From Vulcanimicrobiota bacterium (GTDB lineage: Bacteria > Vulcanimicrobiota > Vulcanimicrobiia > Vulcanimicrobiales > Vulcanimicrobiaceae), in the NCBI GenBank assembly GCA_963795855.1, contig CAWCIZ010000002.1:1-64000 (forward strand): a stretch of DNA of 64,000 bases, in the 5' to 3' direction. Below are positions 46,914 to 50,730 of the stretch, in pieces. Position 1 is the first letter of the stretch. Every line of letters begins with the position of its first letter. The position numbers were made by a program, and so were the translations under genes. The notes beneath the pieces were generated by a model. That model was given only the letters and a program-made list of their open reading frames with translations. It searched no databases and was not told where the DNA came from.

Positions 46914-47753
46914 ATGTCTGTCCTCAGTTCCGTCGCGCCCTCGATTCCGAAGAGCCCGCGCTTTCCACGCAATATCGCCGAGCGAATCGTCAATCGGTAT
47001 CGGATGCAAGCCGCAGCCGCGCGGCTTCGCAGACTTCCGCCCGACGAACGGGGAGAACGCTACGTCGACTATGGCTGGCTCAAACTGCTTTTCAGCGACG
47101 ACGGCGATAAGCAAGAGCTGTACTATCACGCGCATTCGAGCGAATATTACGCAAATGATTTTCCGATCTATTCGAAACTCTTGAAACCCGGCGACGTCGC
47201 AGTCGACGTTGGAGCGAATCTTGGGTGGACGGCAGTGCTCATGGCGTCATTCGTCGGGAGTGCCGGACACGTTTTCGCTTTCGAACCGGCGAAATCGATC
47301 TTCGCCAAATTGCTGAAGACGATCGCTGCGAACGGACTCGAGGCGGTGATCACGCCGCTCAACCTCGCTTGCGGAGGCGAGGCGGGCTGCTGCATGCTGA
47401 ACCGCGTTTCGACGTCGTCGGGCAACAGTTCGATCGTGAACGCCGCCCCCGGCGCGCAAACGGAATCGATTGACGTCGTACGCCTTGACGACGTTGCCGA
47501 ATTAAAGGAGCAAAGGATCACGCTCATCAAAATCGACACGGAAGGATACGAACCCATGGTGCTCGCGGGGTCGGCAGCGCTCATCGCAAGGGAGAAGCCG
47601 TTGATATACTTGGAGATGGGCGGCGACTATTTGCAATCGACGTTGGAATCGCGGCGCATCCTCGAAGCATTCGGCTATCGGCTCAACTCGCCCAAAGATG
47701 TGGACTGGAGCAGAGTCGGAAACGGTTCGAACTTCTTGGCCGTTCCGGTTTGA
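46914..47753 (+). CDS. FkbM family methyltransferase
   Basis: VDVGANLG, VFAFEP, IKIDTEGYE. Confidence 0.92.
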   Translation: MSVLSSVAPSIPKSPRFPRNIAERIVNRYRMQAAAARLRRLPPDERGERYVDYGWLKLLFSDDGDKQELYYHAHSSEYYANDFPIYSKLLKPGDVAVDVGANLGWTAVLMASFVGSAGHVFAFEPAKSIFAKLLKTIAANGLEAVITPLNLACGGEAGCCMLNRVSTSSGNSSIVNAAPGAQTESIDVVRLDDVAELKEQRITLIKIDTEGYEPMVLAGSAALIAREKPLIYLEMGGDYLQSTLESRRILEAFGYRLNSPKDVDWSRVGNGSNFLAVPV

Positions 47754-47769
47754 AAAATCGGACGGGCGG

Positions 47770-48119
47770 ACTACGCCGTTACCACGTTTTGAACGCAGCG
47801 ATTCAAGCATCGCATCGCGCATGAAGTGCACCATTTGTGCCTGATTGAAGCACTCCGTATAACAGTCAGCTCGGCAGGGAAGCGGCTCACAGTCATCCCC
47901 CACCACGATTGGAGCTTACTCACCGTCTCAATTGGCGTATACCGTGAAAAAGCCGTCCTCGTCGTATCTCACGAGGGCGGCTTTGCGGCGTTGCGGTTGT
48001 AGCGTTTTTTCGACTCGTGCGCTTCGGCTTGGGCGCAGATTTTGCGCGGGGCCTTTCAACGGCATGAGGCAGGCCTTTTTCGTCGTTTTCGTTTCATCGC
48101 AGGAACCTCCGCGTATAGT
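47770..48119 (-). pseudogene. Decayed copy of the two small genes at 50275..50728
   Basis: Colinear similarity with two internal deletions and frameshifts. Confidence 0.85.
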
Positions 48120-48268
48120 ATGGCGTCATTCGTCGGGAGCGCAGGACACGTTTTTGCTTTCGAATCGGCGAAATCGATGCCTCGCCAAATTGCTAAAGAC
48201 GATCGCATGCGAACGGGCTCGACGCGGTGATCGCGCCGGTCAAACCTCGGTTGCGGAGGCGGGCCGGC
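48120..48268 (+). pseudogene. Diverged fragment of the FkbM gene (copy of about 47241..47388)
   Basis: ATGGCGTCATTCGTCGGGAG...TTGCGGAGGCG aligned, with indels. Confidence 0.85.
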
Positions 48269-48367
48269 CTAACGGATGGGTCAAGTCCAAACAAAATTTT
48301 ATTTCACTCGACTCACCGTCTGTGCTGGCCTCGTGAACGGTGCGACGTCGCAATTAGCCGCATTCCG

Positions 48368-48535
48368 CTAGGCTTGCGCAACCAGTCTTTTAAGGTGGGC
48401 GGCCAGAACGTCAACGGCTTCGCTCGTGGGCGGTTCGTTGCGTTCCCGCCGCAAAATTCCGGAGGCGATGTTTTGCGCATCAATCTTAGTGAGAAAGCGC
48501 TCTTTCTCAATGATATCTTTAGCGGCCTCGTTCAC
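48368..48535 (-). CDS. Small hypothetical protein (55 aa, below ORF-track cutoff)
   Basis: MNEAAKDIIEKERFLTKIDAQNIASGILRR...LKRLVAQA; possible true start at ATG 48563 via a 1-nt frameshift. Confidence 0.4.
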   Translation of the reverse strand: MNEAAKDIIEKERFLTKIDAQNIASGILRRERNEPPTSEAVDVLAAHLKRLVAQA

Positions 48536-48559
48536 CCGTAGCCATACTCGCAGTCTGCG

Positions 48560-48820
48560 TCATGTGAGTTCAGTCCCACACTCCACGGCGAACATTTCGG
48601 CGCACGGAAAACGGCGTATCTTTACGAACCCGCAAGCACGAAACTGCTCCTCAACCGAAGTTGCGTCGTGTGGGCTCGTGATGTAGGTCACAACGCTGCG
48701 GCCTTCATCGATCGCGAGATTGTAATAGTGCGCCGCATCGGAGGATATCCCCAGGTCTTTAAAATGATCCCTACTGCGCGCATCCAGTAGATACGGGTTC
48801 AGGGCCAATGTCGTTCCCAT
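48560..48820 (-). CDS. Small hypothetical protein (start uncertain)
   Basis: Protein-like C-terminal half of ORF 48560..49087 (FKDLGISSDAAHYY). Confidence 0.45.
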   Translation of the reverse strand: MGTTLALNPYLLDARSRDHFKDLGISSDAAHYYNLAIDEGRSVVTYITSPHDATSVEEQFRACGFVKIRRFPCAEMFAVECGTELT

Positions 48821-49454
48821 CCCGGGTACGTTGGTGCCGTGCGATCCCGATGCAACCGGTGAACCGCGAAATGGAATAAAATGGATTCGTGAACGTGCGG
48901 GGATTTGGCGCACGCGCTCTGTACTAAACAGCGTTGTGCGGCTGGGTTCCAGACCGGCACGTTGTGCCAATATCTTTTCGACTCCGCTTCGTCGGCTATG
49001 CGCGCGATTGCGGCGATAAGAACGTCCGGCATAAACTCTCTCTAAGGTACGGCGTACGGTCAGTGATTTGCCGGACATGGTCAGCACCTATGTTCCCGTA
49101 AGTATGCTCTCGAATCGCCGAAATAGCAAATAAACGCGCCGCAGTAAGATCTATCGAGATTCGATAATCCATGATATCGATTACGCGTGTTCGCAGACGC
49201 GAGTGCCCATCTTGTTTCGGTGCTCTTGATTAGCGTCGCCCCGGATGACTGCGCATATCTCGTCGAGCAAGGCGCGGATTTGATGAAGCATAAGCACGAC
49301 CTGCCGGCGTTCCCTGAGGGCGATACTACTTATCACCTACTGCCGCGCCGGCCGAACGACTTCGTCAAGGGCGAGATTGACGTTCTCAAGCAGAAGGCCT
49401 GTAAACCTTGCGGATTACAGGCCTTTGCGATTTTTTCACCCGATCGACTAACAG

Positions 49455-49910
49455 CTACGGCGTTTTTGTGTAGACCATCGCGGGCTCGCGATGAGCAACG
49501 CTGCGGCCCTCGTCGAGATCCAGCAGGTCAGGCCACGTCGTTACATCGGTCCGATCGGGAGCGATGCGAGTGCGTAGTGCAGTGAAATGCTGAAGTGATT
49601 CGCCCTTGGGAACGCTGGTCATCCAGCGTTGGTTAAAGGAAGCAAGTTCGTCCGGCGATTTCTTCCCGACGAAGCCTTTTATGTAGCCCTCGATCTCCGT
49701 ATCGCTCTTCGCGACCTTCAGGAATTCCAGAAAATCTGAGGCTTTCATGCCAAGAAACTCGAACAGGCCTTCATCCATTGCGGAAGGGTACTCGTACTCC
49801 CCTATGGTTCCGTGCGCTAACGCTTTGGCTTTATCGGTGGTTCGCGCCAGTTGCACAAGGCCGAGGAGTTTCTCTCGAACGCTGCGCGGCGTTGTTTGGG
49901 TGAGATTCAT
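49455..49910 (-). CDS. DUF5069-like protein
   Basis: PRSVREKLLGLVQLARTTDKAKA...GEYEY..MD...FLG...DLDEGR. Confidence 0.75.
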   Translation of the reverse strand: MNLTQTTPRSVREKLLGLVQLARTTDKAKALAHGTIGEYEYPSAMDEGLFEFLGMKASDFLEFLKVAKSDTEIEGYIKGFVGKKSPDELASFNQRWMTSVPKGESLQHFTALRTRIAPDRTDVTTWPDLLDLDEGRSVAHREPAMVYTKTP

Positions 49911-50274
49911 CTATTCCATACTTTCAGAATTGTTATTCCGACTGTACGAACCGCGCGACTGCAATTAAGTTGCGAAAACGAAGAATGCAACGTATTAGAG
50001 GGTTTCGCAATGCTTTGTCGGCGGCTTCCGCTCGCTTTAAAAAGTCGGCCAACGTTCACTGAAGCTAATCCGACTCCCGCGCACGATTGCAGTTTAGAGA
50101 TCGGCGTCTTGACTCATCCGTCGCTCGTATTCGACTTCAACCCTTTTAGGCGCGATTCAATCTAATTGCCCAAATCGGCATGCCATTATAACTCGTTTTA
50201 GTGTGCGCGAACCGCCTCGTATGGCGTGCCGTCTTTTTAATCGCTTGAGGCAGCTGCGGGATCGGACCGCTCGG

Positions 50275-50496
50275 CTATGCCGTTACCACGTTTTGAACGA
50301 CGACGTGCACGGATGCAACCCCGCGCGGCTCGATTTGAATTCGTTCCCCGTCGAAGACGATGATCGGCTGGCTCTTACGCAGCGATTCAAGCATCGCATC
50401 GCGCATGAAGTGCGCGATCTGCGCTTGATTGAAGCACTCCGTAAACGTCCGGCCGTCGTGCAGCGTAACAGTCAGATCGGCAGGGAAGCGGCTCAC
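50275..50496 (-). CDS. Small hypothetical protein
   Basis: GGAGG RBS, GTG start overlapping upstream TGA; homologous decayed copy at 47.8 kb. Confidence 0.65.
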   Translation of the reverse strand: MSRFPADLTVTLHDGRTFTECFNQAQIAHFMRDAMLESLRKSQPIIVFDGERIQIEPRGVASVHVVVQNVVTA

Positions 50497-50705
50497 AATC
50501 TCATCCTCCAATACGATTGGAGTGTACCGCCCCGCTCAATGGCGTATACCGTGAAAAAGCCGCCCTCGTCGTATCTCGCGAGGGCGGCTTTGCGGCGTTT
50601 GCGGTTATAGCGCTTTTTCGATTCGTGCGCTCCGGCCGGGCGCAGATTTTGCGCCGGACCCATCCTCGGCACGAGGGCGGGCTTTTTTCGTCGTTTTCGT
50701 TTCAC
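50493..50705 (-). CDS. 70-aa highly basic protein, candidate ArfA/BrfA-like ribosome-rescue factor
   Basis: GGAGG RBS 7 nt before GTG; HESKKRYNRKRRK motif; internal intrinsic terminator. Confidence 0.6.
   Translation of the reverse strand: MKRKRRKKPALVPRMGPAQNLRPAGAHESKKRYNRKRRKAALARYDEGGFFTVYAIERGGTLQSYWRMRL
50551..50591 (-). terminator. Intrinsic terminator inside the basic ORF
   Basis: Minus strand AAAGCCGCCCTCG-10nt-CGAGGGCGGCTTTTTCAC. Confidence 0.8.
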
Positions 50706-50730
50706 GCGGAAACCTCCGCGTCTAGTATAC

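Follow-up and report, generated by a model that had tools for sequence, protein, structure and literature searches.

A conserved small basic protein gene of Vulcanimicrobiaceae with an in-frame hairpin: a candidate ribosome-rescue factor predicted to be made from a nonstop mRNA

A gene for a small basic protein, carrying a strong RNA hairpin inside its reading frame, was identified in the window, by which the whole analyzed stretch of 64,000 nucleotides of Vulcanimicrobiota DNA is meant. By analogy with known systems, the protein is proposed to be a ribosome-rescue factor that recruits a release factor, a function to which a probability of roughly 0.6 is given. For the window copy, a nonstop mRNA from the sense strand is considered quite probable.

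The candidate ORF is located on the minus strand (50493..50705), with a GTG start at 50705, 70 codons and a TGA ending at 50493. It is preceded by a Shine-Dalgarno (SD) site, GGAGG (50713..50717, minus strand), which is separated from the GTG by a 7-nt spacer, and by TATACT (50724..50729, minus strand) 6 nt 5' of the SD, a hexamer resembling a −10 promoter element and predicted to act as one. On the other side of these signals an aldehyde-dehydrogenase-family gene (PF00171; 50731..52395, plus strand) is transcribed divergently. A GGAGG followed by a 70-codon ORF had been claimed in the first-pass annotation; both are present and our own translation agrees with the earlier one, with a start that is GTG and not ATG. 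At this start (50703-50706) the window has one A fewer than the ATG of the pseudogene copy described below, and most homologs start with ATG; the GTG could be genuine or could be an assembly slip. Residues 1-39 contain 17 K/R and 1 D/E. Residues 1-51, up to the U-run, are conserved, and residues 52-70 form an unconserved tail. The expression signals are found in relatives as well: GGAG or GAGG is present in 91 of the 95 scorable hairpin-bearing homologs, and a TAnnnT hexamer within 18 nt 5' of the SD was found in 76 of 89 (background 4.9%), in 57 of these 76 at 6-7 nt from the SD.

Folding predicts a 13-bp hairpin with a perfect stem within codons 39-50 of the ORF (50556..50591, minus strand; 5' arm 50591-50579, 3' arm 50568-50556, loop of 10 nt). 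The stem is composed of 10 core pairs and 3 A-U pairs formed with the U-run, UUUUU followed by CAC (50554..50558, minus strand). The RNA 3' end is predicted 7-8 nt past the stem base, at codons 51-52, and the stop is codon 71, which leaves a gap of 19-20 codons. The earlier claim of a perfect 13-bp stem with a U-tract near codon 51, about 20 codons before the stop, was thereby confirmed in the sequence. The hairpin has a folding energy of −32.5 kcal/mol (z = −5.74), and none of 200 shuffles was equally stable. A consensus terminator scan with a loop limit of 8 skipped it because of its 10-nt loop. In a genome-wide scan with a strict rule for hairpin-plus-TTTT sites, which the window hairpin passes with a 10-bp stem, only 50 sites were found in the host genome; 16 of them follow a called gene by at most 100 nt, 11 fall within called genes and 23 lie elsewhere. 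Since such sites also occur inside genes, the observation in a single genome is insufficient alone. Only 16 of the 2539 called genes of the host, which encodes Rho, have a strict site within 100 nt after the stop, and classical U-run terminators therefore seem to be rare there. Rfam gave only a weak tmRNA match on the hairpin (8.1 bits, E 3.5), which is at chance level.

Loci for comparison were taken from the best 80 of 97 and the best 80 of 120 relatives; after deduplication 139 loci including the window were obtained, and 137 after removal of two truncated ones. Over codons 11-35 of the candidate, mean pN was 0.19 compared with a pS of 0.60, and pN was below pS in 135 of 136 comparisons with the window copy. 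It is almost certain that the candidate is a real conserved gene. A non-coding RNA with a chance ORF was ruled out by the low pN relative to pS and by the conserved SD and start. The invariant core, G-P-x-x-N-L-R-P-A-G-x-H, is proline-rich. At the other end of the protein, L047, L120, L124, L137, L145, L149, L157, L077 and related loci, which include members with and without the hairpin and have differing neighbors, share a terminal V-D, in many cases as D-V-D or N-V-D.

In a survey for which genomes of at least 90% completeness were requested, and in which the unpublished genomes G014 and G036 enter the genome tallies only, the family profile A3 matched 89 of 191 Vulcanimicrobiaceae genomes, nearly always as a single copy per matching genome, and 0 of 73 genomes from the other 17 families of the phylum. 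With this profile the gene was not found in 102 of the 191 Vulcanimicrobiaceae genomes. Its restriction to Vulcanimicrobiaceae in the phylum survey bears out the first-pass description of a lineage-specific gene. Close homologs carry the labels Ca. Baltobacteraceae, Vulcanimicrobiota or Eremiobacterota. A few loci have other NCBI labels, which are doubtful given that L079 and L083 fall within the Vulcanimicrobiota on the neighbor-gene tree. A search of 1.84 billion representatives yielded 117 proteins at E <= 0.001. The distant relatives, mostly of 40-70 residues, keep G-x-x-x-N-x-R-x-x-G-x-H followed by a basic stretch, and four stop-bearing ones are found on viral contigs (L205-L208). In tblastn searches against GenBank phages, no matches were obtained with the window protein and the L205 protein, and three chance-level records with the L192 protein; neither E. 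coli ArfA nor L192 brought up further relatives in viral scans. No informative match to the window protein was found in Pfam, NCBIfam, PHROGs (best E 0.21), Rfam, PDB sequences or Foldseek. A literature search found no publication on the family, and the phylum was not mentioned among the matches listed; most subscription journals were outside the scope of this search, so the family has possibly been published.

To be counted as hairpin-bearing, a locus had to fold into a stem of at least 9 bp and at most −15 kcal/mol over codons 37-53, which 100 of the 137 loci did. Four of these (L084, L163, L168, L169) have a different stem, followed by no more than 2 T within 8 nt, and were dropped by eye, giving an in-frame hairpin at 96 of 137 loci and 41 loci that fail the test. 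Two of the 41, L073 and L121, look hairpin-bearing by eye and were counted as such on the tree only. At all 96 hairpin loci a stop codon lies 3' of the stem.

Covariation was analyzed in a set of 77 sequences comprising the window, 74 of 85 hairpin stretches, L076 and L078; the stretches came from a rule that requires TTT (86 of 138 loci) and misses the KAAF/EAAF subgroup, and the 11 omitted stretches are mostly of the shifted-arm type. Among these selected homologs, 8 of 12 pairs had changed on both sides. Cells changed on both sides numbered 65 compared with 21 in shuffles, none of 500 shuffles being as high, although this shuffle count is no probability and the 95% pairing of the set is inflated, because the rows are related and were picked for having the stem. 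The covariation score was 0.250, compared with at most 0.169 for slid partners. Two observations do not depend on this choice of rows. In a second subgroup with a shorter loop, the shifted 3' arm encodes KAAF or EAAF in place of EDGF and still pairs. Compared with synonymous recodings, the stems had a median z of −2.8, with 80 of 100 below −2 and the window copy at −4.2. As these comparisons indicate, the hairpin is under selection as an RNA structure.

Conservation of the protein ends at the U-run. Among the 76 E-x-G-F-type loci, the most frequent residue accounts for 96% at G and 92% at F, partly by class definition; after F the values are 24%, 23% and 39%, and then at most 21%. The drop lies right behind the U-run. 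Half of these loci reach a stop within 11 codons from G, and ORF lengths range from 49 to 359 codons with the hairpin vs. 50 to 63 without it. Conservation of the hairpin and of residues 1-45 but not of the tail had been suggested as a check. The conserved residues 1-51, the conserved hairpin and the free tail agree with it, and 41 of 137 loci fail the hairpin test. Many members have only UUU or UUC as U-run, and in 10 of 100 hairpin loci the stop begins at most 9 nt from the stem end, where it could be transcribed.

In the proposed mechanism, a promoter just 5' of the strong SD would give a short, well-translated mRNA; the signals for this are conserved and their activity is predicted from them. 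The hairpin and the U-run would end the RNA at about codon 51, either through intrinsic termination or through processing of the stem, as is suggested by selection on the structure and the lost constraint on the tail, and an RNA ending there is a message without a stop codon. For the window copy, intrinsic termination is the simplest route to this 3' end. RNase III and Rho are both encoded in the host, and for E. coli arfA both cleavage and termination are described (PMC3989581), so that either could make the end. Ribosomes would then stall at the end of the mRNA and, by analogy, tmRNA-SmpB would add the tag (A)ANTEYALAA, with the proposed result that the protein is destroyed as long as trans-translation copes.

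A tmRNA could be identified in the host at G000:C2:618701-619056 (L197; Rfam 120 bits), with a reading frame interpreted as ANTEYALAA; this tmRNA was not detected by ARAGORN. SmpB and an RqcH-like NFACT protein are also encoded. Only two RF-1-domain genes, RF1 and RF2, were found in this genome, which is 86% complete. ArfA (PF03889) was found in 0 of 265 phylum genomes, with a control search that was positive in E. coli, and ArfB in 2 of 265 and in 0 of the 191 Vulcanimicrobiaceae. A repertoire of tmRNA, SmpB and RqcH in which neither ArfA nor ArfB was found resembles that of B. subtilis, which according to PMC11633108 combines trans-translation, BrfA and RqcH.

The evidence for truncation is silent on what the protein does. 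A protein made from a nonstop mRNA under tmRNA control might have another role, such as ribosome silencing or storage, help in RQC, or RNA binding under translation stress. Consistent with this are the lack of detected homology to ArfA and of the KH motif, the presence of RqcH as an already available second rescue route (PMC11633108), and the stop-bearing relatives on the viral contigs L205-L208. However, ArfA and BrfA, the two characterized small basic proteins of such a layout in the literature consulted, are both rescue factors, and production solely upon failure of trans-translation would fit rescue best. A role other than release-factor recruitment is considered unlikely.

A different explanation starts from the hairpin itself, which is symmetric, with a T count in the 8 nt behind the stem of 4.1 in sense and 4.4 in antisense direction, and which may also terminate convergent neighbors. 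It might be mainly a bidirectional terminator or stabilizer for the convergent neighbor, while the gene is read to its real stop, the tail drifts since only residues 1-40 matter, and the product is an ordinary small basic protein that binds ribosomes or nucleic acids. Of the 96 hairpin loci, 7 have no called downstream gene; in the other 89 this gene is convergent in 53 cases and co-directional in 36. The T-runs on the two strands are of equal length, and hairpin-less forms with real stops occur at four places on the tree described below. In L019 (1483-1707) and L111 (2959-3153), moreover, the gene is found between rpsM and rpsK, co-directional inside a ribosomal-protein cluster, where full termination would require a new promoter, but in L111 a TAGAAT hexamer lies 3' of the gene. 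The hairpin is, however, equally strong at the 36 loci without a convergent neighbor. Its strength shows no dependence on orientation, with −25.2 kcal/mol for co-directional (n = 36) vs. −26.1 kcal/mol for convergent neighbors (n = 56), which makes a role in terminating the opposite gene less likely without eliminating it. In addition, the codon position of the hairpin is constant while the neighbors vary, and read-through would yield tails of up to ∼300 unconserved residues. This explanation is regarded as quite unlikely, and a nonstop mRNA is preferred.

The neighborhood of the gene differs between loci. Its commonest neighbor is the divergent aldehyde dehydrogenase gene, present with at least 330 aligned residues in 62 of 136 other loci, and the downstream genes belong to many families (CCG-domain protein, glyoxalase-like, DoxX, ORF2 and others). 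Besides L019 and L111, the gene of L180 (1995-2170) is found antisense between rpsO and pnp. Such ribosomal-protein neighborhoods are a weak hint of a link to translation; most neighbors are unrelated to it.

In the window, the candidate is followed by the conserved ORF2 (73 aa; 50275..50496, minus strand), the GTG of which overlaps the candidate stop codon. ORF2 homologs were identified in 28 of 136 other loci, 5' or 3' of the candidate, and ORF2 was not found in the remaining 108, some of which are short contigs; L035 has a further broken ORF2 piece. No Pfam family was found for ORF2, and its best ESM Atlas score of 0.88 is a lead only. Its co-directional position, the overlapping GTG and the homologs at 28 loci would suit a leader peptide with the hairpin as attenuator of the downstream gene, here ORF2. 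This is very unlikely: in 53 of 89 loci a convergent gene follows, the downstream genes represent many unrelated families, ORF2 lies upstream in 5 loci, and the stop/start overlap is not conserved. Varied families and orientations, together with equal hairpin strength, argue against an attenuator of a single operon. That the protein is a toxin kept in check through tmRNA tagging, or with ORF2 as its antitoxin, for which tight control by hairpin or SD loss (suggesting harmful excess) and the small neighbor ORF2 at some loci could be cited, is most improbable in view of a single copy in nearly all matching genomes, a stable chromosomal neighborhood, the 108 of 136 loci (some of them short contigs) where ORF2 was not found, and a window protein without any family match pointing to a toxin.

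The candidate and part of ORF2 recur as a pseudogene copy, here called copy B, at 47793..48121 (minus strand), with 81.7% identity over 355 columns. It contains GGAGG at 48110-48106, an ATG at 48097, a premature TGA at 48058-48056, and a hairpin at 47984-47949 with one mismatch (z = −3.63). A working paralog was ruled out by a frameshift and a stop after 13 codons. The decayed copy had been described as keeping the RBS, the hairpin and an ATG at the same start position; all three are indeed kept, but the distance from SD to start is 1 base longer. At the place expected for the −10 box, copy B abuts a partial duplicate of an FkbM methyltransferase gene (48120..48270, plus strand; 88.7% identical to 47241-47388), which replaces its upstream region. 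The stretch 46914-50260 appears to be an insertion between an sdhA-sdhB-CCG-domain operon and the candidate gene and contains the FkbM methyltransferase gene, its partial duplicate, copy B and a DUF5069 gene (49455-49910). In many relatives, the CCG-domain gene and the candidate gene face each other directly.

The 41 hairpin-less loci differ from the others in several respects. An SD was found in only 5 of them. The last ten residues have a net charge of −2 or less in 32 of 41 loci without vs. 17 of 96 with the hairpin, and a C-terminal D or E is found in 25 of 41 vs. 12 of 96. On a quick IQ-TREE tree of the neighboring dehydrogenase (63 rows with at least 330 aligned residues), the hairpin state changes 4 times, and three of the changes are nested among hairpin-bearing rows; three of the four hairpin-less lineages are without SD, and L145 retains it. 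As the independent changes are few, a Fisher test overstates the case. Full-length ArfA is stabilized by two C-terminal aspartates (PMC3989581), and by this token the acidic-tailed hairpin-less members look stable. By analogy, we infer that the hairpin-less members are weakly made, stable versions of the protein, and the association suggests that in lineages losing the hairpin, initiation may have become weak and the product a stable protein ending in acidic residues. Rescue factors with an ordinary stop codon have a precedent in ArfT (PMC6299226). Homologs lacking the in-frame terminator had been named beforehand as counting against the proposal; 41 of 137 loci fail the hairpin test, though seemingly as a differently regulated form, and 96 of 137 keep the hairpin.

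In L077, L082, L085, L096 and related loci the start of the hairpin-less gene adjoins or overlaps the end of a GNAT acetyltransferase gene, and the same members have a TACGCT-like hexamer just 5' of the ATG; these starts could reflect either translational coupling or a leaderless mRNA. A Phd/YefM antitoxin gene is found 3' of the hairpin-less gene in L085 (3192-3479), L096, L101 and L154.

It is tentatively put forward, at somewhat less than even odds, that these genes form a fourth family of rescue factors that recruit a release factor, after ArfA, ArfT and BrfA. It would be a branch of a wider group of small H-x-K-K-x-Y-x-R-K-type proteins of bacteria and phages, in which control flipped several times between an SD with nonstop/tmRNA feedback and a real stop with no SD and a stabilizing acidic tail. 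Further small rescue factors beyond the reach of sequence search have been predicted (PMC6881298 and the 2021 review PMC8012679), and the present family is a concrete candidate, in a phylum where ArfA and a bacterial family where ArfB was not found. Assays are feasible with short synthetic genes and the host's own release factors, both encoded in its genome; cognate factors are important here, because such systems function poorly between species (PMC6881298). If the fourth-family proposal is true, the family would comprise naturally occurring regulated and constitutive forms of a single rescue factor. The hairpin-less relatives make it possible to ask directly if weak constitutive expression can stand in for tmRNA feedback. 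If active, a protein without KGKGS and KH would reveal the true requirements for sensing an empty mRNA channel.

Among the known rescue factors, the candidate was compared with ArfA (E. coli b4550; PF03889) by sequence. They have in common a similar length, a stem-loop in the 3' part of the ORF, a dispensable tail, an unstructured N-terminus and a Y-x-R-K segment in a basic stretch. For the E. coli arfA mRNA, PMC3989581 reports RNase III cleavage, with premature termination as a second route. No PF03889 match was obtained at E <= 1 for the window protein, 80 close or 73 distant members, and hhalign gave a probability of at most 0.07% with an ArfA alignment whose shallow depth (20 sequences, 80-93% identity) limits sensitivity. 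An ArfA/BrfA-like identity had been claimed by the first-pass annotation; the profile comparison with ArfA found no measurable homology, and the supposed ArfA likeness of the KK..Y.RK.K segment shrinks to five aligned columns (RYNRK vs. SYMRK). The [YF]-x-R-[KR] motif itself is missing from 26 of 137 members. Unlike ArfA, the candidate has neither KGKGS nor KH. KGKGS, the motif of the ArfA mRNA-channel segment (PMC6299226), is absent from the consensus of alignments A2, A3 and A5. The Lys-His motif common to ArfA and BrfA, which contacts U534 of 16S rRNA (PMC6881298), was found as KH after the Y-x-R motif in just 2 of 137 members, and RH in 6 of 137.

An AlphaFold2 monomer model predicted coil for residues 1-29 and a helix for residues 30-48 (mean pLDDT 70.6, pTM 0.30). 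No β-strand was predicted, whereas ArfA and BrfA add a short β-strand to RF2. A complex prediction for residues 1-51 with host RF2 (313 residues, N-terminal part missing) scored 0.00 against a mark of 0.32, which is evidence neither way. Profiles A3 and A5 matched no PDB chain at E <= 10 in a chain set in which ArfA finds itself and which may lack the BrfA chain of 6SZS.

One clear link to an outside protein was found. The basic protein of the viral-contig locus L192 (1926-2096) aligns with the family in hhalign (93%, E 2.6e-7, 30 columns); it has no in-frame hairpin by folding and no real match to ArfA (hhalign 0.85%). DUF7230 (PF23876) came up as an ESM Atlas lead (score 0.90, 12% of members), matched 1 of 73 distant members at E 0.0067, below the cut-off of 27 bits, and had no match at E <= 1 in the host genome. 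With respect to ArfB and the class I release factors, the candidate is without GGQ and has no PF00472 match. The hairpin-less members resemble Francisella ArfT, which according to PMC6299226 is a small basic protein whose gene has its own stop codon without a preceding terminator. ArfT is described there with ∼40 residues and a KKGGSTNKK segment, and by this description the window gene differs in having the hairpin and no such segment.

The layout resembles that of BrfA (YqkK) of B. subtilis, which according to PMC6881298 is likewise basic, of ∼70 codons, with an in-ORF intrinsic terminator and a narrow range; its host, too, has trans-translation and RqcH. For BrfA, two N-terminal helices with a conserved Arg25 are described, and the candidate is modeled with coil at residues 1-29 and one helix at 30-48; it also lacks KH and is hairpin-less in ∼30% of members. 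The PDB profile searches gave no sequence match to BrfA. As far as sequence profiles can tell, the candidate is not a member of ArfA or BrfA. It is like these two factors in layout, size and charge: an in-ORF stem-loop before the stop with an unconserved tail in the window gene and at 96 of 137 loci, and a small size (51 residues to the U-run) with a strongly basic segment.
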